Shown piece after piece: positions 12,387 through 47,192 of a stretch of 47,515 bases of DNA. How positions within the stretch are numbered: the first letter of the stretch is position 1; every line of letters starts with the position of its first letter. The notes under the pieces were generated by a model. That model did no database searches, was not told where the DNA came from, and was given only the letters and a program-made list of their open reading frames with translations. Origin of the DNA: Muribaculaceae bacterium (GTDB taxonomy: Bacteria > Bacteroidota > Bacteroidia > Bacteroidales > Muribaculaceae); NCBI GenBank assembly GCA_017536215.1, contig JAFXHY010000209.1, forward strand, positions 1-47,515, written 5' to 3'. The position numbers and the translations under genes are program-made.

Positions 12387-12411
12387 CTTTAGGGTCACAA
12401 ATTTTGACCGC

Positions 12412-20700: not shown

Positions 20701-20806
20701 TTTTACCGTTCCCAAATCGTCATACAGATTTTGAAGTTTGATTGCCGCCGGTCTGAGAAGATAGGCGGTAATTTTTTTTGCGGCGGAGAAAAAATTTTTA
20801 TTGGAA

Positions 20807-22290
20807 AGCGAGAGCCTCTCTTGCGAGCGACACCCTGCGTCGGGTCAGGAACCTCGGTCAGCGGTGGCGGAACACGGGTGCGCCTAAGTTGCAGCCCCAT
20901 AAACAGGACGGCAGCATAATCAAAGGGGAAGACCGCCCATTTTCGTAGCTTTTTTTCTTTGATGTAAGGCAAGTGTCCCGTTCTTCACAGTAGCCCTTCG
21001 GGTGTCGGAGTCTGTAACACTCCATAGCATCGAGTTTTCGGCTCGTGCTGAGCCTATCGCATCTTTCAGAGTTGAAATCATCCTCTATGAAGCCTTCGTT
21101 GATGCCGTTGAAAGCACAGCCCAAACCATCGGCTCTTTATCGGGTCTACCCATCTGCGTGAGCCTTGCAGATTATTGGTGTCGCGCATCGAGCCGCAACG
21201 GTCTATCCACGGACGGCACCGCCGCCATTGTACTTGCCAACATTGTAAGTACCGACATAGAGTGTCGCTGATTTGTCTGCGCCGCTCTTGTTACTCCGGC
21301 ATCCTCGGTCGGGGTCAGTCGTTCCGCCTGTACGTGGCGGCTTCGCCACTCTCCGTGAGTCTTATTCCCTGCTTTCCATCTTTCATCTCCGTTTCCATTC
21401 TCCGGGTATCACTCCAGGCTCATTGTCATTTTTCCTGCACAAAGTTAGTAAGGTCATTCACCGGCGAAAGGGCAAGTTTGCACTCCGTGTTCCTCCGTTT
21501 TTCGCTTCGTTGCAAAACGGCAATCACCCTTGCGCCCTCGGTTCACTTTCGACCTCACTTTGGTTTGTTTGTAAAAATTAAAACAATGAACCATACGTTA
21601 AACCCATCAATTTCAACTACAATGAGATTACAATTCGGAGAACTCAACATCACTCCAAGAGTCGTGAACCGACTCCACGAACTGGACTTCACTGTCCCAG
21701 AACTCGAAGATGCCATCGCTGACCACAAGAGCAGCTGCGACGGCGAACCCTCTGTCTACGTCGGTACTTACGGCAAGTACAACAACGGCTCGCTCTGCGG
21801 CCTGTGGATTGACCTCAGCAGCTTCGACGACTACGACGATTTTATCAATTTCTGCAAGGCTATCCACGCCGACGAGGAAGACCCGGAGCTGATGGCTCAG
21901 GACTTCGAGTGCTTCCCACGGCAGTGGTACAACGAGGGATTCATGGACGAGGACGACTTCAACCATATCCTCGAATACTCTCAGATGTGCGACAAGCATG
22001 GCACAGAGGCCGTCGATGACTATATGGAGTATTACGACGACTTCGACAGCTTCGATGAAGCCTACTGCGGAGAATGGGACAGCGAAGAGGACTTCGCCCG
22101 TAGCATCATCGATGAGTGCTACGACATTGAAAAGTCAATGGGCAATCTCGCCAATTACTTCGATTACGAAGCCTTCGCTCGCGACCTGTTTATGTGGGAC
22201 TACAACATGGGCGCACACAATCACGTGTTCCGCCGCCTCTGACCCCTGACCCGACGACTTCGGGAGTCACTCGCAAGAGTGGCTCTCGCT
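20807..22290. repeat. Giant imperfect inverted repeat A (mirror of ardA)
   Basis: Reverse complement of about 20807-21477 matches about 21529-22290 in ordered blocks: GTCGGTACTTAC, GGCAAGTACAA, TCTGCAAGGCT, CCTGTTTATG, CGTGTTCCGCC, CCTGACCCGACG, CTCGCAAGAG.GGCTCTCGCT. Confidence 0.93.
21586..22242 (+). CDS. ardA: Antirestriction protein ArdA (acidic DNA mimic)
   Basis: VYVGTYGKYNNGSLCGLWIDL, YCGEWDSEEDFA, YFDYEAFARDL; very acidic; alternative start at 21622. Confidence 0.93.
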   Translation: MNHTLNPSISTTMRLQFGELNITPRVVNRLHELDFTVPELEDAIADHKSSCDGEPSVYVGTYGKYNNGSLCGLWIDLSSFDDYDDFINFCKAIHADEEDPELMAQDFECFPRQWYNEGFMDEDDFNHILEYSQMCDKHGTEAVDDYMEYYDDFDSFDEAYCGEWDSEEDFARSIIDECYDIEKSMGNLANYFDYEAFARDLFMWDYNMGAHNHVFRRL

Positions 22291-26172: not shown

Positions 26173-26844
26173 ATGGATAGAGCCGTCAGGAAAGGAGCAA
26201 TCGCGTTGGACGAGATGTTGAACGACATCGAAGTGCCTTCGCTCGACGTTCCCGACCTCGACGGCTCTTTTGTTCCGACCGGCGAAGCCAAAGACCTGTT
26301 CGCCGAGAAGAAGCGAGCGGCATGGAAAGATGTGCAACAGGCAGAAGCCCGTTGCGACTTCGCCCCCAATAAGGTGCGCATTTCCTACCGCAATCCGGCT
26401 TTCGGAATAATCTCGCTCTGGAAAAAATCTATTTATGGACGCACTCTCACAGAAATAAAATCTGATGAGAGTATGGTGGAGAAATTTGCCGAAGGCATGA
26501 ACACCCTTATCCGGCAAATTCTCGGTCACTCGCTCGCGTCAGGCGACTGGTGCATCGTAACCTCGCCCAAGCGCAGACACAAGACACAGAACTTTGCCTC
26601 GATGATCTCAGCGAAACTCGGAGAACTTCTCGGCATACCGTTCTATGAAGACCTTGCCGAGTGCCACTCCAAGCATCGTGTCGGGGCTGTCTTTACCTTT
26701 GGAAAAGAACCGCCCAAAGAAAGTAACATCATCGTCTTTGACGATTTCGTCACCACCGGCGCCACAATGATTTCAATGCGCGAGCTGCTAATGCCACTCG
26801 GCAAAAATCTTGTGTTTTTCACCGGAATAAACAACAAACTTTGA
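26173..26844 (+). CDS. Phosphoribosyltransferase-fold (ComF-like) protein
   Basis: PRPP-binding loop IIVFDDFVTTGATM. Confidence 0.75.
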   Translation: MDRAVRKGAIALDEMLNDIEVPSLDVPDLDGSFVPTGEAKDLFAEKKRAAWKDVQQAEARCDFAPNKVRISYRNPAFGIISLWKKSIYGRTLTEIKSDESMVEKFAEGMNTLIRQILGHSLASGDWCIVTSPKRRHKTQNFASMISAKLGELLGIPFYEDLAECHSKHRVGAVFTFGKEPPKESNIIVFDDFVTTGATMISMRELLMPLGKNLVFFTGINNKL

Positions 26845-26875: not shown

Positions 26876-27493
26876 ATGGATAATAAATTCACTGAACTAA
26901 TCGGACAATGGCTGCAAACGCCCGAAGCGGAGCGCGACTACACCATAGGCGCACTCTATCTGCTGAAACTCTCCGGCAATCAAATCATGTATCGCAACAT
27001 TGTTGCTCAACTTGACCGCCGCCACGATGTCGTGGAGTATCAGCTTCAGAAATACTACAATTTCCGCGTTCAGGCTCTGACACACGCCCAAGTTGAGGAA
27101 ATGTCGGCACAAGTCGAACAGATTGTTGCCGACCATATTCCACTTGCCACCGAAGCCGACAAGCAACCGCAGAAAGGCAAGCGAGCCGACCACGACTCTT
27201 TGCCGGACGACATCAAGGCTCGCTACGTTGAGAACCTTTCGCTTCTACAACGTATGCGCGAGCTGCATCTGCGCCTCCGCTCGCTCTCGCTTGACAACGC
27301 TCCATGCCCGGATTCCGAGCGTTATCCGTTCTTGAAAGAACTTATATCGCTCGACAAGAAACTTCATGCCAACTGGGAGGCATACGACCACTATGTCGCA
27401 CCAAGCCCCGATGCCGTTCCCTCGCGTCCGGCTAAGACCGTCCGTTCCGCCGCAGGTGCTAAGAATACCACCAAGAAGTCTGCGAAGAAATGA
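26876..27493 (+). CDS. Hypothetical phage protein
   Basis: Helical ORF, translationally coupled to the next gene. Confidence 0.75.
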   Translation: MDNKFTELIGQWLQTPEAERDYTIGALYLLKLSGNQIMYRNIVAQLDRRHDVVEYQLQKYYNFRVQALTHAQVEEMSAQVEQIVADHIPLATEADKQPQKGKRADHDSLPDDIKARYVENLSLLQRMRELHLRLRSLSLDNAPCPDSERYPFLKELISLDKKLHANWEAYDHYVAPSPDAVPSRPAKTVRSAAGAKNTTKKSAKK

Positions 27494-28011
27494 AACGCAC
27501 TGCCAACATTGACCAAATCCTTCGTCCGTTGAAAGTAACGCCATATCAGGCTTATCTTTCAAATGCCGTGCAGGTTGCCGACATCCTCGAATGGATATTG
27601 GCACAAGTCGGCATTGCTGAAGTTTGGCAGACTTCTTTCTCTATCTCCGAGGAGTTTTTGCGACGGCTCTATTTTATCACCAAGGATAAAAAGGTCAGTC
27701 GCATCAACCTTGTTCTCGACCACAAGGCTACGAACAAGACACTCAAACTTTGGGCGTTCATCACCCAAGTTATTGAGCGTACCTATCTTGCAGATAACCA
27801 CAGCAAGATATTACTCGTCCAGTCCGAGCGAGGCGACACGGTAAGTGTTATCACCTCGCAAAACCTGACACGAGGCAACCGCCACGAGTCAGCTTTTATC
27901 TCCACCGACCCGGCGATCTTCGCGACGCTTAAAGCGCAGGTCGATGATTTAATCACCAATCATTCAGTGCCGCTCCATGACCTATTCCGACAACGACTTG
28001 ACGCAGATTGA
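27490..28011 (+). CDS. Phospholipase D-fold nuclease-like protein
   Basis: NHSKILLV...TSQNLT (HxK...S-x-N variant of the HKD motif). Confidence 0.65.
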   Translation: MKRTANIDQILRPLKVTPYQAYLSNAVQVADILEWILAQVGIAEVWQTSFSISEEFLRRLYFITKDKKVSRINLVLDHKATNKTLKLWAFITQVIERTYLADNHSKILLVQSERGDTVSVITSQNLTRGNRHESAFISTDPAIFATLKAQVDDLITNHSVPLHDLFRQRLDAD

Positions 28012-30504: not shown

Positions 30505-30554
30505 ATCCTCTGAGTCCGAAGTTATCGGCTTGCCGCTTTGCTCCGCAAAGAACA

Positions 30555-30665
30555 CTCCTCGAACACCGCACCGACGGCACCGATGCCTTCGATACTCTCT
30601 ACATCGGTTGCGAGAAATTCCCATACCACGATTCTTTTTCGCTGTCTACGAGCGGAGTTTTATAG
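30555..30665 (+). pseudogene. Orphan second copy of the terL 3' end (37 codons)
   Basis: Reads LLEHRTDGTDAFDTLYIGCEKFPYHDSFSLSTSGVL* versus LLEHRTDGTDAFDTLYIGCEKFPYRDTFTLPTAGII* at 30394-30504. Confidence 0.92.
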
Positions 30666-30717
30666 TTTGGCTATCACAATATTATTTTGTAATTTTGTGA
30701 TTATCAAACTTCAGTTT

Positions 30718-31356
30718 ATGAAATCTAAGATTACTTTTACGGCTATCATATCCTTATGCTTCATGTTTTTCTCTTGCTCCACAAAGCAAGAAAAAGGTCT
30801 TTCTGATGAGTTTCTTATAGCCAACGACGGCACAATGACCGACCACGATAAGCAGAATGTTAATCACTATAATTATTTTGTCGAGATGGCAGACTCGCTC
30901 ATCGTTTATCACAGAAACTACGATTTGCGACACATGGGACAATGCATAGTCGCCATGAATCGTTCTCGTGACAAAATATCTTGGTTTAGCCATCCTAATG
31001 ACAAACTTAAAAAAAAGACCTCCGAGAACATCTCGAAAATTCAGTCTAAACTTGACAGCCTCGGTGTTCCACAAGAGGTAACTTATCCAATAAATGTCGG
31101 GGAAATCTATCTTTATCCCAAAAACGGAGTTATTGAAATTAACACTGCATCTCCCTCAAATAATTTCAAATTATACAATGCTTCAATAGACTCCGAGGGC
31201 AATTTGGTTAGAACCGTCCATCGCCGCCATATTTTATATGAAGCGACGCAATCTCCTATTGAAGGAGTCTATACTATTAAAGACCTTACCTCTACATACA
31301 CATTAAAAGTTCAAAACGGATTTAAAGCCAGTCCCAAAATAGATTTCCATGATTGA
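30718..31356 (+). CDS. Hypothetical lipoprotein (cargo)
   Basis: MKSKITFTAIISLCFMFFSC lipobox; TAATTTTG promoter at about 30690. Confidence 0.75.
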   Translation: MKSKITFTAIISLCFMFFSCSTKQEKGLSDEFLIANDGTMTDHDKQNVNHYNYFVEMADSLIVYHRNYDLRHMGQCIVAMNRSRDKISWFSHPNDKLKKKTSENISKIQSKLDSLGVPQEVTYPINVGEIYLYPKNGVIEINTASPSNNFKLYNASIDSEGNLVRTVHRRHILYEATQSPIEGVYTIKDLTSTYTLKVQNGFKASPKIDFHD

Positions 31357-31918
31357 TATTAAAAACAACGCCCTCGGCGCTGTGGGCGAACATCAAACTC
31401 TTTCATGATTGCTACTGCTTGGCTATCAAGCTGCAATTACCAATCTATCCGTGAAGAACGATGAATCGACCGACATTTTATGCCGAGATACAAAAGGCCG
31501 ATTTGTTGCCATTCAAGTTAAGGCTACCAAAGGAGACAACATAACTGTAGGCTTTACTCATAAAGAGTTTTATGATGCCAACGGCAACTTGGATTTGGCT
31601 AAGGGCAAAGCATTTCTTGACAAGAAAATAGTCGGACCGTGGGTGCTTGTTCAAGTCTGCGGATCTACCGTTCTCCCCACTTTCAAGTTCTTCATACTTT
31701 CTCCCTCTCAAATACGAGAACTCATCTATGACTCTGAAAAATGGTATCTGACCGGCCACCATCGAGCTAAACTTCCTGATGCCTCAGGACGTATCGGTAT
31801 CCCCGTTCCTTGGTTAAACGGGCAAGGTGTTCCTGCAAATTCTAATCATGTTGAATGGATTAACCCATTCGCTTCTGAGAAGTTTGAGGACGCTTGGCAT
31901 AACTTATTGATTGATTAG
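31349..31918 (+). pseudogene. PD-(D/E)xK nuclease-like gene with an in-frame TGA at 31406-31408
   Basis: MIDIKNNALGAVGEHQTLS*LLLLGYQA...STDIL...IQVKAT. Confidence 0.7.
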
Positions 31919-31919
31919 G

Positions 31920-31992
31920 GCGTTGCGACACCGTCGCCGGGCTATTGTAAACGGAGCCTCGGTCTCCTCCATTCGGCATCTATCCCTAACGC
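31920..31992 (+). repeat. 73-nt structured repeat, copy 1
   Basis: GCGTTGCG...CCCTAACGC with inner GGAGCC-TC-GGTCTCC; homologous to 38106-38178. Confidence 0.75.
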
Positions 31993-32197
31993 TTGTCGAT
32001 AACTTCTTTGATTTTGCTGTTGGTTGGCTCACAAATTATTAGTAACTTTGCAATTACTTAACAGCAAAATCTGTAAATGACCCATTGACATCGAAAATAT
32101 AACGGCGCGAGCCGACAATTTTTTGAAACTCCCAAGTAGTTGTTACAGGCTTTGGTCGGCCTTCAGATGCTACAAGGGAGTTTTGCTTTTGCTATCT

Positions 32198-33943
32198 ATG
32201 GATCGAATAGATATGATACATACTGTTGGGCGAGAGTTCTTGGTCTCAAATATTGAGAACAATGAATTCAGCTATCAACAAGTAATAGACCGTTCATTGA
32301 GCGGCCATTATAAACTTGATATTCGTTTCTTTGATGAAAGTTCTGAAACAGCAGTTTTAATCGAAACCAAACGTAGGTTTACCAATACAGATAAAGAACA
32401 ATTGTTTGCATATGTTTCGTTGGAACAAGAACTGAATCCAGAAACTAATATTATAGCCATACTCGCTAATACTGACAATGATCAGATTAAAGTTTGGAAA
32501 TTCTCTAATAATGAAGCAGCAGGTTTGGAATTGAGCGATTCCAAATTAAAGAGTTTTGAGGAGTATAAAATGTGCTTTATCCCTCAAAATGTAAACGATA
32601 GAAATGCCGTTTTAGAGAATACTTCCAAACTTAATAAAATACTTCATGACAATGGTATTCCTGAAAAGTTAAGGAGCCAATTTGTTGGTACTTGCCTTCT
32701 TGCATTAAAAGAACGTTTGAAATTTAAAGGACTTTCCACATTTCAAATAAATGCAGGAATAAAAGAGATATTGGCATCTATGCTCCATGACAGCCTTGAT
32801 AGGGCCAAGAAACTCGTCGTATTACAAAATAACATTCTTGAAAGTCAAAGCGTTTCTTCTTTACGCTCAGAGGAATATCAAAAGATACTTCTTTTTATAA
32901 AAAAGAATATTTTACCGTACATAAATGAGTATACAACAGAGGGACACGACATACTTAGCTACTTCTTCACCACTTTCAATAAGTACGTAGCACGAGAAGA
33001 CAAAAATCAAGCGTTTACGCCAAATCACATCGCTCACTTCATGTGTAAGGTTGCAGGTATTCACCGCAATATCCGTGTTCTCGACCCAACTTGCGGTTCC
33101 GGAACTTTCTTGGTTCAATCTATGTCACAAATTCTTAAAGAATGTGAGACAGCAAGCGAGAAAAAGCATGTAAAAGAACATCAAATATATGGAATAGAAT
33201 TTGACGAGAATGTATATGGATTAGCAACCACCAATATGTTAATTCATGGTGATGGCAACTCTAACATTCAAGCAGGTTCTTGTTTTGACAAAAAGCAATG
33301 GATTGAATCATCTAATATAAATTTAGTTTTGATGAACCCACCTTATAATGCTTCAAAAAATCAAGTACCGTCTAAATATGCTCGTCTATTTGGGTCTAAA
33401 TCTACGGACCCGACAAAAGGATTAGGTTTTGTACAATATATTGCAGACACTGTAAATCAAGGTAAGCTTTTGACATTATTGCCAATGGCTTGTGCGCTTA
33501 CATCCAGTTCTGTCATCACTGATTTTAAGGAAAAAATGCTTCAAAAACACACCTTGGATGCTGTTTTTTCTTTACCTCCTGATATGTTCTATCCAGGAGC
33601 AAGTGCCGTGGCTATATGTATGGTTTTTAATTTAGGGCAACCACATCCATCTGATTTCGAAACTTTCTTCGGTTATTTTCGAGAAGATGGTTTTGAGAAA
33701 CGGAAAGGTGTTGGTCGCGTCGATATAAATGAAGTATGGGATAGCATAGAATCTGAATGGCTATCTTTATATCGCCACCGCTCTGAAATGCCGGGTAAAA
33801 GTGTTAATAGGGTTATTACTTCAAAAGATGAATGGTGCGCTGAAGCTTATATGGAAACAGATTACTCAGTTTTATCTGACAATAATTTCATTTCCGTGAT
33901 GAAATCTTATGCTGCATATTTAACAGAAAATGAATCCATTTAG
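32198..33943 (+). CDS. BcgI-like (type IIB/IIG) fused endonuclease-N6-adenine methyltransferase
   Basis: N-terminal D...LIETK nuclease motif, FTPNHI, LDPTCGSGTF (motif I), MNPPY (motif IV). Confidence 0.88.
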   Translation: MDRIDMIHTVGREFLVSNIENNEFSYQQVIDRSLSGHYKLDIRFFDESSETAVLIETKRRFTNTDKEQLFAYVSLEQELNPETNIIAILANTDNDQIKVWKFSNNEAAGLELSDSKLKSFEEYKMCFIPQNVNDRNAVLENTSKLNKILHDNGIPEKLRSQFVGTCLLALKERLKFKGLSTFQINAGIKEILASMLHDSLDRAKKLVVLQNNILESQSVSSLRSEEYQKILLFIKKNILPYINEYTTEGHDILSYFFTTFNKYVAREDKNQAFTPNHIAHFMCKVAGIHRNIRVLDPTCGSGTFLVQSMSQILKECETASEKKHVKEHQIYGIEFDENVYGLATTNMLIHGDGNSNIQAGSCFDKKQWIESSNINLVLMNPPYNASKNQVPSKYARLFGSKSTDPTKGLGFVQYIADTVNQGKLLTLLPMACALTSSSVITDFKEKMLQKHTLDAVFSLPPDMFYPGASAVAICMVFNLGQPHPSDFETFFGYFREDGFEKRKGVGRVDINEVWDSIESEWLSLYRHRSEMPGKSVNRVITSKDEWCAEAYMETDYSVLSDNNFISVMKSYAAYLTENESI

Positions 33944-34964
33944 TAATACTAAACTTTTCTCAGTAAAGGAATTATTCCCTTTACTTGTAAACGGAAAAGG
34001 TAATAATAACTTATTATCTGATGGTGATTCTGTACCATATCTTGGTGCAAAAAAGGATGATAATGGAGTGATGCGATATTGTGCCTACGATAGCGCACTA
34101 ATTATGAAAGGAAATTGTATCTGTTTCATCTGTAATGGAGCGGGGTCAGTGGGTTATACCCTTTATATGGATAGACCATTTATAGCTACATCAGATATTG
34201 TTGCTGGCTATAATGAAAAACTTAATCCATATATAGCAATGTACCTTATTTCTCTCTTTGATTTAGAGCGTCCACGTTTTTCATACGGGCGAAAATGGAA
34301 AAAAACGCTTAAGGACACAACGATCCCACTTCCTCAAACAGAAAACGGCACAGTTGATTGGGCGGCAGTAGATTCTTATATTAAAAATTCTATATTGCCG
34401 TTGCTTCCTACCCGTGCGAAGACAATTTGGAATCGTGGACCCATTAATAAACCGATATTTCAGAAAAAGATAAATCTTAATGATAAAATATGGCGTTATT
34501 TCCATATTGCAACATTGTTTAACTCATTTGAAAAATGCAAATGTTCAAGCGCTTCAGAATTATTGGAAGATGGCAATGAAATAGCATATATCGGGGCGAA
34601 AAAAAGTGACAATGGTGTCATGAAATATGTAAAAAGAGAAGAATCCTTAGTTACTAAAGGGAACTGTATTGTTTTTATTGGTGATGGGCAGGGATCAGTA
34701 GGTTATTGTTTGTATCAACCGAATGATTTTATTGGCTCTACAACTCTTGTTGCCGGATATATAGATAACTTGAATCAATATATAGCTCAATTCTTAGTCA
34801 CAGTTCTTGATATGGAAAGATATAGGTATTCTTTCGGGCGTAAATACAATAAGAGTGCTATTATTAATAGTAAAATTAAGCTACCAATAGACGATAAAGG
34901 TAAACCAGATTGGCAGTTTATGGAGAACTATATAAAGAGTCTACCTTTCAGTTCAAATATCTAA
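33930..34964 (+). CDS. HsdS-like specificity subunit (two TRD repeats)
   Basis: Internal duplication YLGAKKDDNGV/YIGAKKSDNGV, FSYGRK/YSFGRK, and PDWQFMENYIK. Confidence 0.88.
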   Translation: MNPFSNTKLFSVKELFPLLVNGKGNNNLLSDGDSVPYLGAKKDDNGVMRYCAYDSALIMKGNCICFICNGAGSVGYTLYMDRPFIATSDIVAGYNEKLNPYIAMYLISLFDLERPRFSYGRKWKKTLKDTTIPLPQTENGTVDWAAVDSYIKNSILPLLPTRAKTIWNRGPINKPIFQKKINLNDKIWRYFHIATLFNSFEKCKCSSASELLEDGNEIAYIGAKKSDNGVMKYVKREESLVTKGNCIVFIGDGQGSVGYCLYQPNDFIGSTTLVAGYIDNLNQYIAQFLVTVLDMERYRYSFGRKYNKSAIINSKIKLPIDDKGKPDWQFMENYIKSLPFSSNI

Positions 34965-34991
34965 GTTAACAATACTTTTTATAATATTTAA

Positions 34992-35909
34992 ATGGAACTC
35001 GATACTCTTAAACAAGAAACCAATCTTCGTAAGGCTTGGCCTAACGAAGCCAAAGACTTTACTCCGTGGCTTGCCGAACATTTAAGTTATGTTGGCGACA
35101 TTCTCGACATGGAATTGGAACTCGTTGAGAAAGAATCAAAGGTAGGAGGCTATTCCGCTGACATTTTAGCGAAAGAAGCTAATACCGACAATTATGTCGT
35201 TATCGAAAATCAGTTGGAAGATTCCAACCATACTCATCTCGGACAACTTTTAACATACGCTTCGGGCAAACAAGCCAAAGCAATAGTTTGGGTCGTTAAA
35301 AAAGCACGTGACGAACATAGAGAGGCTATTGAATGGCTCAATGACAATACTGTCCCTCAAATTGCTTTTTACTTGTTAGAAATTGAACTTTGGCAAATCG
35401 GCTCATCCAAATTAGCTCCCAAATTTAATATTGTGGAACGACCTAATGAATGGGCAAAGACGATAAAACCAAATACTGACGCTTCCGACACTCAGGTATT
35501 GCAACTTGAATTTTGGCAAGCATTTAATGACCATGCCGGGACTACGACATTCATCAAGTCGTTCAGACTCCGTACTGCTAAATCTCAAAATTGGTATGAC
35601 CTTGCTGTTGGAGATAGTCGTTTTCATATTTGCTTAGAAGCTAAAAAACAGAAAGGTGAAGCCACGGTCGGAATATACATTCCGGACGACAAACAGCTAT
35701 ATAATGGTTTCCTTAAGCACAAAACCGAAATAGCAACAGCACTCGGTGTTGCAGAAAATGACATCGAATGGAAAGATGCCTCAAAAGCCACCCGCTTTTA
35801 TCTAAAGAAAAATTTCGATATGGCCGATACCGGTCAATGGATAATCGTTTTCAAATGGTATATTGAAAACTGTTTGGCAATTAAAAAACTAATTCCATCA
35901 ATTATTTGA
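34992..35909 (+). CDS. NucS-like PD-(D/E)xK nuclease with a DUF4268-like C-terminus
   Basis: EAKDFTPWL, ADIL, VVIENQL...HLGQLLTYASG, EFWQAF. Confidence 0.8.
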   Translation: MELDTLKQETNLRKAWPNEAKDFTPWLAEHLSYVGDILDMELELVEKESKVGGYSADILAKEANTDNYVVIENQLEDSNHTHLGQLLTYASGKQAKAIVWVVKKARDEHREAIEWLNDNTVPQIAFYLLEIELWQIGSSKLAPKFNIVERPNEWAKTIKPNTDASDTQVLQLEFWQAFNDHAGTTTFIKSFRLRTAKSQNWYDLAVGDSRFHICLEAKKQKGEATVGIYIPDDKQLYNGFLKHKTEIATALGVAENDIEWKDASKATRFYLKKNFDMADTGQWIIVFKWYIENCLAIKKLIPSII

Positions 35910-36012
35910 AACCGTCAGAATTTCAAATATCGTGAAAATTCAAAACGTTAGTTGCTTTGAAATCCGCAGATAGCTACTTCTCAACCTCAAAACAACTTTT
36001 CAATATATAGCC

Positions 36013-36267
36013 ATGACAAAATTAGGAAAAGTCAAATCGTGGTACATAGACCCCGAAGACAATAAACTGACATACTCTCAACATAATATTCTGTTCGTAG
36101 AAGTAATTGACGGACAGAAGTATTACACCGCTCGTCATGATTCCGTTGAGTCTGACGATTACGATGCAGCAGTAGAAACCGGTGCATTTGAACTCTGCGG
36201 ACAGACCTACAACGCACGTTTCGCTGACATCTATGGTCGAGAGAACTACACCAACGTGACAATATAA
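36013..36267 (+). CDS. Hypothetical protein (cargo)
   Basis: Short ORF with an AT-rich leader, followed by a partial repeat. Confidence 0.6.
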   Translation: MTKLGKVKSWYIDPEDNKLTYSQHNILFVEVIDGQKYYTARHDSVESDDYDAAVETGAFELCGQTYNARFADIYGRENYTNVTI

Positions 36268-36277
36268 TGAGTTTCAA

Positions 36278-36307
36278 GAGTTGCGGCCACGCCGCCGCGC
36301 TTTCGTA
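36278..36307 (+). repeat. Truncated copy of the 73-nt repeat
   Basis: GAGTTGCGGCCACGCCGCCGCGCTTTCGTA matches the 5' half of 38106. Confidence 0.7.
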
Positions 36308-36342
36308 TAAAATATTACTTACAATCAACACATAAAGTAATT

Positions 36343-36924
36343 ATGGTAGATTTATCTCCTTTATTTCCCGAAGCGCAAACAAATATGCGCAACTGGAAAA
36401 ACCGCTACGATGCTGACGAGTTCCCCTATAAGGTCTCGCTCAACATCTTCTATCGCCGCTACACTATGATGTATATGTGGCAAGACATTATGGCTTATGC
36501 CAACGGTCTTAAAGGCCGTAAAGATTTCCAAACCGCTTACCGCGAATTGGAAATGTTATACGCTCAAACTTCAGGTAAGACTCGTATGGTTCTCGAAGAC
36601 AACCTGAGAAACAAGCCAAACGAAAATGTTGGTGGCAGCACTTTCGCTCACTATAACGAGCTTATAAGAAAGACTCGTCAAGGTGACAGGCAGGCTAAGG
36701 AAGAAATAGAGTTCTCCTATTTCTACTATTTCCTTGCTGACAAGGCGACCCTTCTTTGGGCAGCAATCTGTGCAACCGGAGTATCAAAGATTGATGCCGT
36801 CGCTCAGTTGACTGGCTTCCAAATTCAGCCAATGCCTCTCGAAGACTATGCAACCGTTAGCAACGGCTTAGGTCAGCTCGCTGCAGCACCTTTCTTGAAT
36901 AAGCATTATTCGCCTATGCCTTAA
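36343..36924 (+). CDS. Hypothetical protein (cargo)
   Basis: 193-aa ORF ending 4 nt before the next gene. Confidence 0.75.
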   Translation: MVDLSPLFPEAQTNMRNWKNRYDADEFPYKVSLNIFYRRYTMMYMWQDIMAYANGLKGRKDFQTAYRELEMLYAQTSGKTRMVLEDNLRNKPNENVGGSTFAHYNELIRKTRQGDRQAKEEIEFSYFYYFLADKATLLWAAICATGVSKIDAVAQLTGFQIQPMPLEDYATVSNGLGQLAAAPFLNKHYSPMP

Positions 36925-36928
36925 TCTT

Positions 36929-38095
36929 ATGGACGAAGAATATCAAGCAGTCATAAATAGACTTCTCGGAATAAAAGGTTTTGCTAAATTTATGCAAACC
37001 TTTCGTCAAACTGACAATGGAGAGAAACCAATTGTACAGATGATTAACGGATTCAAAGAATATCGTAATTCTTCTGAACCCTTAACTCAGCCTGAAATTT
37101 GGCTACTTGATACCATACAAGATAAGTTGTTTGAGTTATGCCATCGACATCACTCAAACAACTTATTTTACCTCAATGAACACGAAACTATTGGTGATGA
37201 AATCCTTAACGAATTTCGTAAAGATTGGGATGCTTCAAGCAGCGGCAGATGCGCCTATGTAGATCGCGAAAGCAAGATTTACAAAACATTTCGTGAAACA
37301 ACTATCTATGATGAACACCAAGACAATGGTATCATATTAAAATATGATAATGCTAATCATCCTTTAATTTATTCTACTATTGGTAAGGCTCTCTTGAATG
37401 GGGGATTTTTTACCCATGGCTTCCCATTTATTTCCAAGGGTTTCGCTTATGCCAACAAAGCTCATAACATTTTTTGGCATAGTCCATATGGCGTTTTCGG
37501 TTGTACAGAATGTATTTGGGAATTTATCAGGCTGCTTTCAATTGATACGCTGAAGAATAAATATGCCGATTATTACAAGCCGTTAATAAAACTGCTGTTA
37601 GTCTATCTTTCTCGTTCAATTGCATTGTGTCACATTACTAAATTGCCTCAGGCAATAGATTTTTATAAAAATCGAGCATTTTTACTGAAAGACCACTATC
37701 CTATATTTATGGCAATTTTCGCTGATTACGGATTTTTTGCTACAAATATGGAAGTTCAATTTGTTTCAGATAACTTTTTGGGTTATCAATTTGCTGCCGA
37801 ACTTGGCGCACCTGCCCTTGGTGCGGAAATGCTTAATGACTCAAAAAAGATGTATTCATACGGCAGCTTAAATTATTTTAATGAGGATAATGGTCTAAAG
37901 GATATTGAGGATGCTACATGGTTTGAATTGGTCGAAAGAGGAAAATTTAGAATGAATAAAGTTGCTGAAGAAATTATTAAAGAATTGGAACGAGGAGAGT
38001 TAATGATTGATAATATCGTATACAAAAAAATGTTGGAGGATATTTACACTTCAAACAGCAACTCTCATAAACGTTTTGACTGGAAAGAATCATGA
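36929..38095 (+). CDS. AT-rich hypothetical cargo protein, paralogue of 22298-23473
   Basis: HPLIYS, FWHSPYG, YLSRSIA, YSYGSL..GL.DIE.ATWFEL. Confidence 0.8.
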   Translation: MDEEYQAVINRLLGIKGFAKFMQTFRQTDNGEKPIVQMINGFKEYRNSSEPLTQPEIWLLDTIQDKLFELCHRHHSNNLFYLNEHETIGDEILNEFRKDWDASSSGRCAYVDRESKIYKTFRETTIYDEHQDNGIILKYDNANHPLIYSTIGKALLNGGFFTHGFPFISKGFAYANKAHNIFWHSPYGVFGCTECIWEFIRLLSIDTLKNKYADYYKPLIKLLLVYLSRSIALCHITKLPQAIDFYKNRAFLLKDHYPIFMAIFADYGFFATNMEVQFVSDNFLGYQFAAELGAPALGAEMLNDSKKMYSYGSLNYFNEDNGLKDIEDATWFELVERGKFRMNKVAEEIIKELERGELMIDNIVYKKMLEDIYTSNSNSHKRFDWKES

Positions 38096-38105
38096 TACAA
38101 TGTGG

Positions 38106-38178
38106 GAGTTGCGGCATCGCCGCCGCGCTTTCGTAAATCGAGCCTTGGTCTCGACCGTAAGGCTTCAATCGCTAACTC
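38106..38178 (+). repeat. 73-nt structured repeat, copy 2
   Basis: GAGTTGCG...CGCTAACTC with inner TCGAGCC-TT-GGTCTCGA. Confidence 0.75.
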
Positions 38179-38236: not shown

Positions 38237-39056
38237 GGCGATGAATTTTGAGCATAGAGAGGAATTTGACCGTGCTTTGATGCCCTTTGAGGGAGGGATT
38301 TATCAGTAATTACCCCGAACTTTATGTTTCGTCGACTCGTACATTGAGCGATTTTGTTCTCCTGTTCTTCATCGGTTGGGCTTCGTTATTCCGTCTACGT
38401 TACGCTTTGGCCGTCGGTGATTACACGGTGTTGATGTTCCGTATTCGCTTGGGCTGTCGGCCGTTCACAGCCAAATATGCCTTGCAGGTTACGTGAGCCA
38501 TTATTTTGACAAGACGTTTCATAGGGCATACTTGTATGACGCGCTCGGAGCAGCATTGTATTTACATCGCGAAGTTAGCGTCTTTATCTACGCTCGAAAA
38601 GGGCAGGTAAATTCGCTCAAAAAATCTTCCTTTTTTACTGCTTAAAAAAGAGTATTCAAGGGGCAAGCCCTTTTGGACGAACCCTTGTCGGCTAACGTGC
38701 CGGGAGGCACTGATTGGGTCAGACGCATATTCTGCGGTGTAAAACAAACGCGCCCCGGCGCACAAGTAAAACCCAATAAAACTTCAAAACAATGACCCAC
38801 GTAATGAACATATTCGACAGCTCTCTCAACTCCGACAGCTCAATCAAATACTACTCAGTAGAAGTAATCACTTTCGATGGCGAAAGCTACACAGAAGAAA
38901 TCGAAGCCCGCGACGCCGACGAAGCCCAGGAAATCGCAGCTTCAATGTACGACGATGTCGACTACACAATGGTTCAGGGTTGCTTCGCATACTGATAAAT
39001 CAATTCTCCCTCAAAGGGGCTGCTTCGGCAGCCTTCTTTTTTGCTCATTCATCGCC
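38237..39056. repeat. Giant imperfect inverted repeat B (mirror of the 38792 gene)
   Basis: Ordered matches CACGTAA, CCGACAGC, GTAATCAC, CGAAGCCC, TCAATGTACGA, TACTGATAAATC, CTCCCTCAAAGGG, TTCATCGCC. Confidence 0.92.
38792..38995 (+). CDS. Small acidic protein (candidate anti-defence factor)
   Basis: 67 aa with 15 D/E and 2 K/R; A-rich leader; terminator at 39018-39042. Confidence 0.8.
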   Translation: MTHVMNIFDSSLNSDSSIKYYSVEVITFDGESYTEEIEARDADEAQEIAASMYDDVDYTMVQGCFAY

Positions 39057-39909
39057 AACGGCAGCTCCGTTGATTTCCACTGCGTTAATGCTGTCGCGGT
39101 CAGACTCTTTAGCCGTGAGGGCTATCGGGCAGGTGCCTGTCGGCCATCCGAGCTGTCCGCTCCGTTCAATTTGCCGATTTCCATTGTTTCAGGTCGGGTG
39201 ATACTTCGTTTGTTGTCGGAGGATTGAGAGCTATTCTCGCACCGTTGAACTCGACCTTTGCCCTCGCTGACGCACCAACCGCAGGGCTATGGCTCATCTC
39301 GTCCGCTGCCTCTTTTACCTTTTACCATTTACCTTTTGCCTATCAGATGTGTACATCATTGTGAAGCGGTCAGACTTTCGGGCGCGACGGACACCGCCGC
39401 CGCTTGCCTCGATTGAATGCGTTCGATGTGTTCTTGCTACGCAAGCGGCAAGCCGGTGAGGCGTCGCTCCATATCAAGCGCAAGACCATACAGCAGCACT
39501 CTTTAGCCGCATCCTCAGCCTACGCCATGGGTAAACCTTGAACGACATACCGCTGAACTTGCTGCCACGATTGAGTGCGGAGTTGTGTGCCGGTCTCTCA
39601 GGCGGGGCAGTTTGAACCTCTTTTCTGCGTTCAGTTTTCCTTTTGCCAATCTCGTATTCGGGGAGTGAACCGAGGTCTATTTTTCCTGTACAAAGTTAGG
39701 TCGCCAACTCAACTTCCCTCCGGCTCTCTAAAACCGGCTGCGCCTATTTCTGCGACAATTTTACGAAAAATGGTACAAGCCTCATTTTTAGACGCCCGGC
39801 TTAAAATTCTCTGTAAATTTTTGTTCGGTCTCAAACAGCTTCCCACTTGATTGTACCGTAAAAATTAAGAGCCTCGGCTCACATTTCAAACCCCAAATAC
39901 TTCAAAACT

Positions 39910-40200
39910 ATGGCAAAGAAAACTAAAAAATCCGCAGAGAACATCACAGCTCAAACAGCAGTTCCAGCCGTCGAGACTACTCCGGCTACATCAACTCCCA
40001 AGCTCATCGTGGCTCAACGCAAGTTCAACCGCTGGTATGTCTACTTCAAGGGCGTTGCCCCCAAGGACAATGTAGGCTGCGGATGCAAGACAGCCAAGAG
40101 TGCTATGCGCTATATGCACTTGCTCAGAGCTCGCTACGGAGCAACGATTTCACAAAACATCTATGAACGCCTCCAGTTCGAGGCCGCGAGAGAGGCGTAA
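39910..40200 (+). CDS. Small basic hypothetical protein
   Basis: A-rich leader; first gene of module C. Confidence 0.8.
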   Translation: MAKKTKKSAENITAQTAVPAVETTPATSTPKLIVAQRKFNRWYVYFKGVAPKDNVGCGCKTAKSAMRYMHLLRARYGATISQNIYERLQFEAAREA

Positions 40201-40248
40201 GCCTCCCTCGCTTTTAGCCCGAAAGTTAAACCGCTAATTCTCACAATC

Positions 40249-40452
40249 ATGTACGAATACATCTGCTACACAAAACAAGGAAAATGGAAGTTCAATGCTG
40301 ACAGCGATATGGACGCGATGCGCACAGCCCTTTATTACTGTTGGCGCGACGGCGAGGACTTTATCAAGGTCGAGTTCGTCAAAGGTTGCGAGAATTACAC
40401 GCTCTCAATCCTACATATCGACAACAATTCACGCGAAGTATTCACCCTCTAA
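40249..40452 (+). CDS. Small hypothetical protein
   Basis: Second gene of module C. Confidence 0.75.
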   Translation: MYEYICYTKQGKWKFNADSDMDAMRTALYYCWRDGEDFIKVEFVKGCENYTLSILHIDNNSREVFTL

Positions 40453-40463
40453 AACCCGAAACA

Positions 40464-40718
40464 ATGGAAATCAATTACGGCAAATTCACCGAACAAGAGC
40501 TGCAAGTAATCCTCGATGCAGCGCGTACTATCAACTACGCCTTTGGCACTCAATTTCCGAGCCACAGCGAGCAGATAGCTCTCCTGATTGAAGACCTGCA
40601 CTTCCGCATCATCAATCAAATAGTCATTCAGAGCTACAATGCACTTCGCAAGAAGTACATCGAGCGTGGCATCGACCCCGACGCTCCCGATTTCGTTCCC
40701 GACCATTTGGAGAAATAA
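40464..40718 (+). CDS. Small hypothetical protein
   Basis: Start MEINYGKF after AAACCCGAAACA; followed by a terminator. Confidence 0.75.
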   Translation: MEINYGKFTEQELQVILDAARTINYAFGTQFPSHSEQIALLIEDLHFRIINQIVIQSYNALRKKYIERGIDPDAPDFVPDHLEK

Positions 40719-40772: not shown

Positions 40773-40785
40773 GCTGTCTATCGGT

Positions 40786-40820
40786 GTCTTTTCGGCTGCA
40801 TCAACTGCAAACTACATTTG
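40786..40820 (+). promoter_or_regulatory. Candidate phage late promoter, copy 2
   Basis: GTCTTTT-N20-TACATTTG. Confidence 0.75.
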
Positions 40821-40824
40821 CAGT

Positions 40825-42619: not shown

Positions 42620-42634
42620 GACGCCTAAATAAGC

Positions 42635-42669
42635 GTCTTTTCGCATCCAACATACCGTCCATAACTTTG
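42635..42669 (+). promoter_or_regulatory. Candidate phage late promoter, copy 3
   Basis: GTCTTTT-N20-TAACTTTG. Confidence 0.75.
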
Positions 42670-42688
42670 CTGAAAATCTCAGCAAGTT

Positions 42689-44029
42689 ATGGACGCTTCT
42701 TTTTCTCTAAACTACAACTCCGTTGAGAACGTGCCGGGCTATGAAGCCCGTGCAGCGTTCATTGTCAACTCCGCATCCGTATTCAAGGAGGATGTGGATA
42801 TTGTGCCGACTATCGTAGACGATAGTCTGAGTTATATTCCGTGGGGCGGCGACAATCAGATGCCGTTCAATATTCTTGACCTTATCGAGAAAGACGAAAC
42901 ACTCGCCACCTGCCAGTGTTTCAACGCCGAGGTCTGTTATGGCGCAGGGCTCAGGTATGATACCTGCATCGCTTCCGCAGCGGTCAAGAGTGCCGTCGAG
43001 GACTTCACTCTTGACAACGACCTCGCCTCATACTTTCTCGGAGTGTCGCAGGACTTTAAGCACTTCGGCTTTGCCGTGTCGGTGCTTATTCTCAACGAGG
43101 ACGGCTCGCGCATCGTCCGTCTGTTGAGAAAGGAAGCCTGTTATTGCCGCTTCACACCGGCTGACAAACACGGTCGCATTTCCAAAATCCTTTACGCCAA
43201 TTGGCGCAAACCTCTCTCGTCGCGCAGCGACATCGAGGAAATAGACCTGCTCGACCCGGCTTCTCCGTGGCGAGATCTGCAAGACAAACTCGCCCAAAAA
43301 ACACACTGCCGCAAGTTCGCCATCGTCAGCCGTATTCCTACGGTTGACTCTACCTATTATCCTATTCCTTATTATGGTGCGTTGTTCCGAGGCAAGTGGT
43401 ACAACATCAAACAGCTTATCGGCATTGCTAAGGAAGCGAAGCTGAAAAATTCAGCGCCGATTAAGTACCACATCGAGATAGGCAAGACATACTGGGAGTC
43501 CATATTCCGTGCCGAGGGCATCACCGACCGCCGCAAGCAACAGGAGCGCATTGTGCGCGAGAAGCAGCAAATCCTCGATTTCCTGACAGGCGCGGAGAAC
43601 TCCGGGAAAGCCTGGTTCTCCACTTTCTACATCTCGCCCGACGGCAAAGAGCAGCACGATGTCGTAATCAACAAGATTGACGACTCGAAAGAGGGCGGCG
43701 ATTGGGAAACCGACATTCAAGAAGCAATCAATATGATATGCTTTACTATGCGTGTGCATAGTAACCTTGTCGGCTCAGTCCCCGGCAAAGCCCAGTCCAA
43801 CAACTCCGGCTCGGACAAGCGCGAACTTTACACAATCGCCCAAGCCCTTCAGAAACCGTATCACGACCTGCTCTTTACCGTCCATCGCATCATCATCCGC
43901 TTTAACAAGTGGGATAACGTCACCGTAGGTGTGCCGTTTATCCAACTTACGACTCTGGACGAACATCAAGACGCAAAGCAGGTTAAACTTCCAAACTCCA
44001 ACTCAGACAATGAAACTGATAACGACTGA
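42689..44029 (+). CDS. Portal protein
   Basis: 446 aa; YIPWGGDNQMP, YYPIPYY, LTGAENSGK, VHSNLVG, SGSDKRE pattern of Bacteroidetes phage portals. Confidence 0.8.
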   Translation: MDASFSLNYNSVENVPGYEARAAFIVNSASVFKEDVDIVPTIVDDSLSYIPWGGDNQMPFNILDLIEKDETLATCQCFNAEVCYGAGLRYDTCIASAAVKSAVEDFTLDNDLASYFLGVSQDFKHFGFAVSVLILNEDGSRIVRLLRKEACYCRFTPADKHGRISKILYANWRKPLSSRSDIEEIDLLDPASPWRDLQDKLAQKTHCRKFAIVSRIPTVDSTYYPIPYYGALFRGKWYNIKQLIGIAKEAKLKNSAPIKYHIEIGKTYWESIFRAEGITDRRKQQERIVREKQQILDFLTGAENSGKAWFSTFYISPDGKEQHDVVINKIDDSKEGGDWETDIQEAINMICFTMRVHSNLVGSVPGKAQSNNSGSDKRELYTIAQALQKPYHDLLFTVHRIIIRFNKWDNVTVGVPFIQLTTLDEHQDAKQVKLPNSNSDNETDND

Positions 44030-44846
44030 GGTGCAGTTACGCGCCCATATCCCCAACATCATCGCCACGGTCAAGGGCGAGATGCCCTATATCGAAAGGC
44101 TTGCGCACTTTCTCGACCTTGCCGAAGACTGGGTAAAAACGACTTTCACTTCGGAAAGTACGTTCAACACTATCTGCGGTTATACCGACAGCAACAATAT
44201 CAAGATATTGTGCAGCCGTTTGGTCGTTGCCGACGCTCTGCGCCGTGCAATTCCCTCGCTCGACATCGTGCTTACTCCAAATGGCTTTGGAGTTGTCAGC
44301 ACTCAGAATCTCGCGCCGGCATCCAAGCCACGTGTCGACAGGCTCGTCGGCTCGATGCTCGCTCACCGCGACGACTGCATCGCTGCACTTCTACCCGAAC
44401 TCGTCGGGGCATCGAAGTGGCTCACATCCAAGCAAGCCGACTTCTTCGGCGCAACACTTTTCCCTGACCTCGCTATCGTTGACAGCATCGGTAACGTGCA
44501 GGGATGCCGTTGGGAAAAGTATCTCGAACTCCGCTCAAAGGTCATAGACCTTGAAGCCTCGTTAGCCGAAGAATGGTTCTCTCGTGAGCTGATGGAAAGC
44601 CTCAGATATAGCAACCTTATCAAGCAGATAAGTTTCCAGAAAGCGTTAGTCGTGAATCAAATTCAATCCCAAATCGTGGGCTATCTTACAGTCGGGAGTT
44701 TCAATTCACGTCGCCTTGCCGACATAGTGAACTATATCCGTCAGGACGAGGACGAATTTCACGAATGGCATACATCGGAAACCGCGAAGCTGTTCTCGCC
44801 GCCGGTATTCCGCAACGAAAAGAAAGCGCGTGGCTATTTCTTCTGA
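44010..44846 (+). CDS. Putative head-completion/adaptor protein (DUF6712-like)
   Basis: Overlaps the portal stop; AIPSLDIVLTPNGFGVVS, APASKPRV. Confidence 0.6.
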   Translation: MKLITTEVQLRAHIPNIIATVKGEMPYIERLAHFLDLAEDWVKTTFTSESTFNTICGYTDSNNIKILCSRLVVADALRRAIPSLDIVLTPNGFGVVSTQNLAPASKPRVDRLVGSMLAHRDDCIAALLPELVGASKWLTSKQADFFGATLFPDLAIVDSIGNVQGCRWEKYLELRSKVIDLEASLAEEWFSRELMESLRYSNLIKQISFQKALVVNQIQSQIVGYLTVGSFNSRRLADIVNYIRQDEDEFHEWHTSETAKLFSPPVFRNEKKARGYFF

Positions 44847-45364
44847 GGCATACAGCAGTCGGTGAGCCACGAAGTCGCGGATGTTCCTTTGCTGATATGA
44901 TGAAACTGAGGGTCATGGCACGGGACACTGATTTTCCGAGGCGAAGTTAGAATATCCGCTCACTTGTCAAGGACACCGCAAGTTGTCTGCCATTCTCATA
45001 CTTCCGAAGCGCATCCAATCCTTGACATCTCCGTTCGCTACGGATATTCAATTACTTGCCCGTAAAATCTGAAGTGCCTCGGCACATAACCCCAAAAACA
45101 GTTTCATCATGATTACATCAGCAAATCACATCAAACAAGACGACTTCGTCAACCTCACCGACTATTCGGCTGTATGCCCCAAAGGCAAACGCACTTTCTT
45201 CACTTTCGTTCACTTCTTGGACTACTCGACGGCTCACTGGAGCAACATCTTCGCTCTCAACCGCAAGGATGCCATGACGCAAGTCCTCGCCAAGTTCTCG
45301 GACTGCATTGAGCATATCCGCGAAATCGCCCTCTATGAGAAAGACGTGGATTGAAACTCCCGAC
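44691..45364. repeat. Imperfect inverted repeat D (mirror of the 45109 gene, overlapping the 44010 CDS)
   Basis: GTCGGGAGTTTCAATTCACGTC (44691-44712) versus GACGTGGATTGAAACTCCCGAC (45343-45364), 21/22 complementary; also CAGTTTCATCAT, CGACTTCGT, CTCACCGACT, GCTGTATGCC, CGGATATTC, TCCTTGACA. Confidence 0.92.
45109..45354 (+). CDS. Small hypothetical protein (module D)
   Basis: Leader like those of modules B and C; hairpin at 45374-45402 downstream. Confidence 0.75.
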   Translation: MITSANHIKQDDFVNLTDYSAVCPKGKRTFFTFVHFLDYSTAHWSNIFALNRKDAMTQVLAKFSDCIEHIREIALYEKDVD

Positions 45365-45405
45365 CACGACTCTGCGACGGCTCCCCATTCGGGAGCCGTT
45401 GCCAT

Positions 45406-45440
45406 GTCTTTTCGGCAACCGGCTTTCCACCGTACTTTCG
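45406..45440 (+). promoter_or_regulatory. Candidate phage late promoter, copy 4
   Basis: GTCTTTT-N20-TACTTTCG. Confidence 0.7.
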
Positions 45441-45462
45441 CATAGTCAAATTACATTCAACT

Positions 45463-46209
45463 ATGCAGACAATTTCCATTAACTTCATCTTGCCGGATGA
45501 CTGGCAAGAATTGGGCGACAAACGACTTCGCTATGTCTACGAACTCATCGCCGCAGAACATACAACTGACGAGATAAAGACCATTTGCTTGCTTCGTTGG
45601 AGCGGCACAAAGGTTATCGGTCGTAAAGACAGCGGCTCGTATCTGCTTAAAAAAGGTAAACTTCTTTTTGAGGTTACGTCCGTGACCCTCGCAGAGCTAC
45701 TGCCGCATCTCGCATGGCTCGGCTCACTACCGACCGTTCCTGTCCGGCTCTCGAAAATCAACCGTCAGCAAGCACTTCCGGCTGACTTCGAGGGTGTGCC
45801 GTTTGAAACCTACATCATCTGCGATAACCTCTATCAAGGTTATCTGTCAACGCAGAATGATGCGCTTCTCGACCAACTCGGCGCTACGCTCTACGGCAAG
45901 TCAATGTCTTTCAAGCCGGCTGAGCGCATCAATATCTTCTACTGGTTCGCCGCGTTGAAAGAAACGCTGTCAAAGAAATACTCCGACTTCTTTCAGCCGT
46001 TGGCAGGTGTCGACGACGGCAACCTGCTCGGCTCGTCTACCTCGGTAGAGGATGCGATGAACGCACAAATTCGTGCGCTCACCAAAGGGGATATTACCAA
46101 AGAAGCCGAAGTCCTCGCCCTCGATACGCACCGTGCTTTAACGGAGTTAAACGCACAAGCGCGTGAATACAAGGAACTCAATGCCAAAATCAGCACCAAT
46201 GGGAAATAA
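45463..46209 (+). CDS. Hypothetical phage morphogenesis protein
   Basis: Long ORF in the structural module. Confidence 0.7.
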   Translation: MQTISINFILPDDWQELGDKRLRYVYELIAAEHTTDEIKTICLLRWSGTKVIGRKDSGSYLLKKGKLLFEVTSVTLAELLPHLAWLGSLPTVPVRLSKINRQQALPADFEGVPFETYIICDNLYQGYLSTQNDALLDQLGATLYGKSMSFKPAERINIFYWFAALKETLSKKYSDFFQPLAGVDDGNLLGSSTSVEDAMNAQIRALTKGDITKEAEVLALDTHRALTELNAQAREYKELNAKISTNGK

Positions 46210-47136: not shown

Positions 47137-47171
47137 GTCTTTTCGTCTGTATAGTGATAGCCATAACTTTG
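47137..47171 (+). promoter_or_regulatory. Candidate phage late promoter, copy 5
   Basis: GTCTTTT-N20-TAACTTTG. Confidence 0.75.
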
Positions 47172-47192
47172 CTGCATCTAATCAGCATCGTT

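Follow-up and report, generated by a model that had tools for sequence, protein, structure and literature searches.

The locus studied here raises the question of why the coding tail of a phage structural gene should be complementary to the small gene that follows it. The window is a whole contig of 47,515 nt from a Muribaculaceae bacterium, with chromosomal genes up to a tRNA-Lys (12314-12387) and then a prophage (12314-47515, plus strand) that runs from this tRNA and an integrase to the contig end. The prophage also encodes a repressor, a primase with a DUF927-like helicase part, a ClpP-type head protease, a terminase and a portal related to that of phage Leef_1; its gene set is that of a double-stranded tailed phage. 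In relatives, lysis, tape-measure and tail genes follow, and a complete one of about 43 kb (G020:C1) goes on with amidase, tape measure and tail genes. Directly 3' of the portal lies the head-tail adaptor gene (44010-44846, plus strand; 278 aa), a DUF6712 member (Pfam PF20459, E 3e-21). Its predicted model (pLDDT 88.5) has a helical adaptor fold which, with the position after the portal, is of the HK97 gp6, Mu gp36 and SPP1 gp15 type. The top rows of a structural search were mostly phage neck, adaptor and tail chains (best Z 8.0; HK97 gp6, 5.7; Mu neck, 6.0), and the first half of the protein (residues 1-147) gave middling scores against neck and adaptor chains (Z 5.5-8.0) in a list that such chains dominate. 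Foldseek returned nothing at E<=0.001. The gene after the homologous portal of Leef_1 is annotated as an adaptor, and its direct profile match to ours is weak (E 0.048).

The outer 156 nt of the inverted repeat, or mirror, were held in the preliminary description of this DNA to be the end of the adaptor gene, and they are: 44691-44846 are the final 51 codons plus stop of the ORF 44010-44846. The left arm (44691-44973) and the reverse-complemented right arm (45019-45364, plus strand) share 222 matches, and their alignment places the loop region at 44974-45018. The right arm consists of a leader, the small gene D1 (45109-45354, plus strand) and 10 nt past its stop; we call the whole module D. 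The local alignment score of the arms is 109.5 against a shuffle mean of 25, and the fold has a z of -11.5 as RNA and -10.5 as DNA (0 of 20 shuffles equally low). The 21/22 pairing of the outermost 22-mer and the GAGAACAGCTTCGC block were also recovered. The proposal that two coding sequences pair with each other stands for 44765-44831 with 45189-45275 (56 matches), but the best block, the 22-mer, is half non-coding: 10 of the 22 bases on its right-hand side (45355-45364) lie 3' of the stop of D1. In the adaptor-coding part as a whole, 108 of 140 paired columns match, and a check fixed in advance placed complementarity beyond the 22-mer as well, as this part scores 32 without it, a value reached by 1 of 1000 shuffles. 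An assembly artefact is ruled out because both arms recur, with 0-2 differences, in contigs that stem from other runs; two of these, X8 and X12, each span nearly all or all of the mirror. A scan of 6159 positions of the source genome gave scores of at least 60 only at four mirrors of this prophage and at one marginal site. The module D region had no Rfam match at E<=0.5.

The three sister mirrors share this layout. Mirror A (20807-22290) lies over ardA (21586-22242; PF07275, E 1.8e-33), mirror B (38237-39056) over a gene of 67 aa (38792-38995), and mirror C (39163-40491) over 39910-40200, 40249-40452 and the start of 40470-40718; the -7 boxes discussed below are on the minus strand at 21447, 38577 and 39698, respectively. 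In all four mirrors, one to three small genes lie with their leader and coding sequence in the right arm, of which the left arm is a shorter, gapped reverse complement. The arms measure 280-760 nt, their length tracking that of the genes, and the mirrors are scattered over 25 kb, unlike a clustered leading region. Among the related elements that were scanned whole or largely, nine have mirrors and five have neither mirrors nor the covered genes, with the limit that weak D mirrors of G011, G020 and G111 escaped the coarse scan, which may also have overlooked weak ones in these five. The source genome has a second prophage (G000:C67; L119, L120) with the same core gene order, no mirrors and no small genes. 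Another locus (L116:254-3896, from G047:C28) carries three mirrors back to back, of which the second and third cover C and D genes, with about 20 adaptor codons remaining before D, and then the lysis-tape-measure spacer described below; it is a reduced element that retains just the hairpin modules. Elsewhere in the window, two genes between capsid and terminase (26173-26844 and 27490-28011) have weak ComF/PRTase-like and phospholipase-D (Tyr-DNA phosphodiesterase)-like matches, and genes like them occur in some mirror-less relatives too. A cargo block (30538-38095) contains type I-like methylase and specificity genes and DUF4268, and a 30-nt direct repeat (36278-36307 and 38106-38135) flanks two unknown genes.

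Either strand of mirror D could in principle be the one that folds. The minus strand, the template for D1, forms a stable, rod-like stem-loop as DNA (-166 kcal/mol), and the plus strand folds strongly as RNA too. The advantage of the minus over the plus strand (-13 kcal/mol, vs -9 +/- 5 in control segments) does not exceed the controls, nor does a preference read from mismatch types (A.C 501 vs G.T 322 on the plus strand; 37 of 39 loci), because the plus strand is C-rich throughout. The choice of strand thus comes from the promoter box. Each of the four left arms has TAACTT(T/C)G on its minus strand, at the inner end, and faces a decayed word there; the -7 consensus of the primary sigma factor of Bacteroidota is TAnnTTYG (PMC7366714). 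The consensus-like box of mirror D, TAACTTCG (44942-44949, minus strand), has a -33-like CCTTG 18 nt before it (44968-44972, minus strand), which pairs with the identical word at 45021-45025, and it faces the decayed box of the right arm (45050-45059, plus strand). Across the scanned stretch of module D relatives, 53 of 61 rows (which include duplicates and one row unscorable at a contig edge) carry the -7 box on the left arm's minus strand and one carries it on the strand of the gene itself. For the A of this box, the mean predicted pairing probability is 0.20 over 42 distinct D loci, with paired flanks; the letters of the box were fixed by the search pattern, its pairing was not. In the source copy the value is 0.57 and the bubble only partial. 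A scan for sigma-70 boxes found none. The predicted transcription start is near GTAAAATC (45062-45069, plus strand), ahead of a mini-hairpin (45074-45085, plus strand) of four pairs; in 28 of 35 loci its loop reads TTCG. Since a C(UUCG)G loop is typical of an RNA 5' end, this hairpin suggests that transcription starts within the right arm, at a place that lacks a -7 box in double-stranded DNA.

We consider it probable, from the arrangement of boxes and arms, that the mirrors are single-strand promoters of the Frpo kind extended to gene length. Because the minus-strand box of the left arm faces a decayed one, the minus strand, once single-stranded and folded, would rebuild the promoter of the gene: the left arm, as non-template strand, would contribute the -33 and -7 boxes, and the mRNA of the small gene would be copied from the right arm as template. 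RNA polymerase would start near 45062 at a bubble that is already open, the gene-length partner strand would displace the RNA, with the single strand behaving as a duplex, and second-strand synthesis would abolish the promoter, leaving a short burst of anti-defence proteins in the new host. Frpo/ssi promoters are known from F, ColIb-P9 and pESBL (PMC11541004 and PMC12672017, and Masai and Arai 1997 as cited). The mirrors share with them an imperfect stem-loop on the template strand before anti-defence genes including ardA, boxes that are rebuilt in the stem and missing from the gene's own upstream strand (here Bacteroidota boxes), and a predicted silence after second-strand synthesis. An anti-defence product is assigned for mirror A (ArdA); D1 is without an assigned function. 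Similarity in sequence to known Frpo/ssi would not be expected across phyla. Frpo/ssi are described in these reports as intergenic (the searches covered regions of 50-350 bp or windows of 300 nt), with sigma-70 boxes and in plasmid leading regions, whereas the mirrors have Bacteroidota -33/-7 boxes and arms of 280-760 nt that cover whole genes; in mirror D, moreover, one arm is the coding tail of a structural gene and the carrier a tailed prophage with no detected relaxase. EGeRS1 of the Bacillus plasmid pLS20 likewise places long structured regions before establishment genes, and differs in being branched and upstream only, with no promoter found in the fold and the transferred strand as non-template (PMC8708921).

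Single-strand promoters are generally viewed as a conjugation device. Gene-length hairpins that selection maintains at four places in a temperate phage would imply that phage DNA is single-stranded when it meets host defences, and would single out four groups of uncharacterised small genes as candidates for anti-defence. They would also offer a first testable design for a single-strand promoter of Bacteroidota, and codons of a structural gene would carry a second, DNA-structural code. The early genes of the tailed phage N4 use single-strand hairpin promoters, which are short and read by a virion-borne polymerase; our prophage is likewise tailed but has gene-length hairpins, host-type boxes and no such polymerase that we could see. 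A search of the literature, limited to the main text of papers outside subscription, did not turn up gene-length hairpin promoters described for phages.

Conjugative elements have this design in front of ardA, too. In IncI1 plasmids, ardA is a gene driven by a single-stranded DNA promoter (PMC12672017), and plasmid ardA and its neighbours are transcribed from hairpins right after transfer, not from double-stranded DNA (PMC12672017, PMC11541004). We collected 29 ardA loci from the family of the source genome, of which three have no upstream DNA: a mirror scoring at least 50 is present in 25 of the 26 scorable ones, with the box on the left arm in 22/26 and on the right arm in 1/26, and the arms extend past the ardA stop in 10/26. 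Among seven loci from other Bacteroidales families, five have a hairpin above 60 and one a hairpin of 50.5; the seventh, at a truncated gene, has none. Two carriers, G384:C1 and G328:C4, are elements with a relaxase, a coupling protein and TraG, in which the hairpin precedes an ardA co-oriented with the relaxase gene; ardA is co-oriented in G440 too. The hairpins of the conjugative elements (G384:C1, G328:C4, G440:C1 and G298:C5) have the same one-sided TAnnTTTG design at the same kind of gene, with mostly 110-140-nt arms that end before the gene, unlike the prophage mirrors, and the first two carriers, those that were checked, have relaxase and transfer genes, unlike this prophage, in which no relaxase was detected. 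In 6/6 hairpins of such elements the A of the box is paired, so that the bubble is not seen, and the box of the best-covered one (L146), CACCTTTG, is one off the consensus. In one of the elements (L150:6963-8079; G328:C4:56962-58078), the arms reach about 500-570 nt and lie over most of ardA. No description of ardA hairpins in Bacteroidales conjugative elements was found in the literature searched.

The arms might instead act in RNA: a read-through late mRNA (portal-adaptor-D1) would fold them and hide the start of D1, and an antisense RNA from the leftward promoter would free it by pairing with the left arm. The plus-strand RNA does fold strongly, and the stretch from adaptor to D1 showed no terminator-like site, so a late mRNA would hold both arms; the EGeRS1 regions of pLS20 block read-through (PMC8708921). 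This scheme nevertheless gives the gene no promoter of its own, does not explain why a decayed box is paired in register with a good one, and has no place for the UUCG hairpin just behind the box or for the shared ardA design of conjugative elements. A GC-rich stem with a T run before mirror A (20745-20780), seen by eye and not called by a simple scan, also speaks against it. As an explanation of the mirrors we judge it unlikely, and an RNA-level switch may be a side function in module D.

A comparison of adaptor loci bears on how the adaptor's tail became an arm. Three of 41 loci have no downstream DNA; of the 38 scorable ones, 15 have the small gene and all are mirrored (49.5-146), and 23 have neither (25-37). 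In 11 of the 15 the local mirror alignment enters the adaptor coding sequence, by 63-301 nt. The next structural gene of module-less alleles begins about 19 nt past the adaptor stop. The cassette comes with a terminator and with a fresh promoter-like site that would serve this gene: in the window, a hairpin resembling an intrinsic terminator (45374-45402, plus strand) closes module D, and a double-strand promoter-like site, TGTCTTTTCG-N18-TACTTTCGC (45405-45441, plus strand), would restart transcription of the structural gene 45463-46209. The pattern of this site recurs before 42689 and 47193. More broadly, (T/C)GTCTTTTCG-N18-TAnnTT(T/C)GC recurs before structural genes (42630-42670, 45405-45441, 47137-47172 and 40785-40821), possibly as a site for a phage late activator. 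Module-bearing adaptors have 82% of their tail nucleotides in common (other pairs, 61-64%), also where their N-terminal parts are just 50-75% alike. As these tails are alike despite diverged N-terminal parts, cassette and tail appear to move together, and module D is, on this comparison, an optional cassette that travels by recombination with the adaptor's tail. It can be lost again, since one locus (L010:1621-1650) has a module-type tail and a left-arm remnant with the small gene absent.

The source copy seems to record such an exchange. Its adaptor clusters with module-less alleles (sister to L001, 100/97) and turns module-type near 44770. The right arm appears to have adapted to the coding sequence at the 22-mer, because the module-less L001 has an identical 22-mer; at its end, the right arm of the source copy departs from that of other D modules in a way that fits this 22-mer. 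The G-S-F/G-S-I motif of the adaptor occurs with three codon sets, each of which is met by a complementary word at the stop of the small gene. In the scheme we favour, module D would have been inserted right behind the adaptor stop, where no other sequence was available, so that the adaptor tail lengthened the left arm; synonymous adaptor codons and the 3' end of the small gene would then have co-adapted, and the cassette would now recombine together with the last 25-60 adaptor codons. In the source copy, a crossover near 44770 would have been followed by re-matching of the right arm's end to the new allele, likely by templated copying.

The idea in the preliminary description that adaptor codons had been shaped to pair with D1 survives in part. 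Synonymous recoding of the adaptor tail lowers pairing from 37.7 to 21.6, close to the 21.3 of module-less adaptors (p<=0.05 at 33 of 41 loci); the 22-mer, on the other hand, already exists in a module-less allele. Recoding the small gene lowers pairing less, to 32.1 (15 of 41 loci significant), partly because non-coding bases past its stop contribute. In four helices of the adaptor coding sequence, 11 of 45 pairs have changed in both partners (a count reached in 3 of 500 shuffles), a statistic inflated by the choice of the structure on the same alignment, and 75% of cells are paired, vs 35-46% when slid. RNAalifold recovers the inner stem but not these helices, and arms often pair with their own partner no better than with that of a relative. 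Bulged bases over 39 D loci number 2250 on right arms vs 472 on left arms. A shift of amino acids in the adaptor C-terminus, also sought by a check fixed beforehand, was not clear, and the K of TAKLF is found in module-less adaptors too. The results partly support pairing that rests on codon choice and the 3' end of the small gene, with compensatory changes, given that module tails are also alike through shared ancestry, which leaves constraint and homogenisation incompletely separated.

These patterns bear on two further readings. The -7 box could be an ordinary leftward antisense promoter that damps the late operon in the lysogen, with the mirror a by-product of an ancient inverted duplication and without a folding role. 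The left-arm boxes could indeed double as a leftward promoter in double-stranded DNA, both being on one strand at near-normal spacing. The arms, however, keep pairing by compensatory changes among relatives that are 40-56% alike in D1, arm length tracks gene length in mirrors A-D, and the outer end was re-matched after recombination, all of which makes this reading very improbable. The same slim chance goes to the hairpins being relics of a conjugative ancestor or serving DNA-only functions, such as priming or stalling second-strand synthesis, not expression. Frpo/ssp hairpins prime or stall conversion too (bioRxiv 10.64898/2026.01.09.698686), and five related prophages do without mirrors and covered genes; against this, each hairpin aims at an intact small gene, and the mirrors are kept across genera and were recently re-adapted.

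The product of D1 has 81 aa and a modelled beta-beta-alpha-beta fold (pLDDT 82) with weak fold matches only; to judge from this model, it is of a common small alpha/beta type found in many uncharacterised phage proteins. The gene is conserved, as a further check set in advance had asked, being 40-56% identical to 8 aligned relatives, and the homologue search gave up to 49 clusters at 50% identity, the weakest of them partly spurious, with 32 at E<=1e-10. In most of the rows that had context, D1 follows an adaptor or a fragment of one, and it is also located behind distant adaptors (L029, L030 and L066) whose mirror stays outside the coding sequence. Named records with D1 are mostly Muribaculaceae or unassigned Bacteroidales, and a record of the commensal Duncaniella muris contains module D. 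A sample of the family has adaptor homologues in 53 of 200 genomes and D1 in 11 of 200; 400 genomes sampled across the order yielded a single weak hit and no D1 outside the phage group. No Pfam, PHROG or NCBIfam family matched, a word search returned D1 itself only, and an atlas search returned unnamed clusters only. The best structural matches (PurS and a ribosomal protein, Z 5.9) allowed no assignment, and comparisons with T7 Gp2, AcrIE2, AcrIC9, p56 and Dmd (Z 4.3-4.9) stayed at the level of the common fold. Paralogy with the small proteins of mirrors B and C was rejected, the profile comparisons not being significant. D1 is likely an early host-takeover or anti-defence protein, a role suggested solely by its company with ardA. 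Its birth by inverted duplication of the antisense strand of the adaptor, which the preliminary description had offered from the complementarity along the 3' half of D1 while missing the apparent promoter role, is largely refuted and hardly credible, as no antisense frame resembles D1 (best 27, shuffled mean 24), many bulges break the frame, the D1 family is older and wider than the overlap, and there are D1 genes whose mirror ends at the adaptor stop codon.

Single-strand promoters require a single strand, and its source is the least certain step of the reading we prefer: most likely, it would come from hitch-hiking on resident conjugative elements. No match to a MobP relaxase, Mob_Pre or Rep_trans was found inside five near-complete phage records; the single hit belongs to a separate element beside the phage in G600. 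A PF03432 search of the source genome, which is 69% complete, found none. The tailed-phage gene set and the scatter of the mirrors over 25 kb also count against the promoter reading. Rather unlikely is a phage lineage that delivers its genome as one strand (packaged so, or with a strand removed on entry), in which early genes were rebuilt as gene-length fold-back duplexes for the host polymerase and anti-restriction proteins would be made before there is restrictable double-stranded DNA. Skew at four-fold sites was discarded as a trace of single-strandedness, since mirror-bearing and mirror-less phages overlap and the host is also skewed.

Beyond the window, the complete relative has an ORF-poor, hairpin-rich and C-skewed spacer of about 1.9 kb between lysis and tape-measure genes (L046:16381-18300; G020:C1, minus strand). 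It is 70-80% conserved in more than 20 relatives, contains a 228-bp internal repeat and has no Rfam match. In mirror-bearing phages the spacer is 1.0-2.2 kb long, with a GC content of 53-60% and a C skew of 0.12-0.17, and four mirror-less ones are unskewed. It is a candidate transfer origin, single-strand origin or large RNA. An oriT search of the spacer, the palindrome and related loci identified no transfer origin: a nic-like word in the spacer, which we take to resemble the RP4 nick site, is absent from several relatives, and a 50-nt palindrome in common with a mobilisable element is scattered in its placement and absent from the window. The spacer had no plasmid match, and most of 28 spacer loci lie at phage lysis or tape-measure genes, a few being without assignable context. 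A REP-like palindrome of about 55 nt (L161:3460-3520 and other loci), which the window lacks, is scattered in these phages and also occurs beside a Mob_Pre gene.
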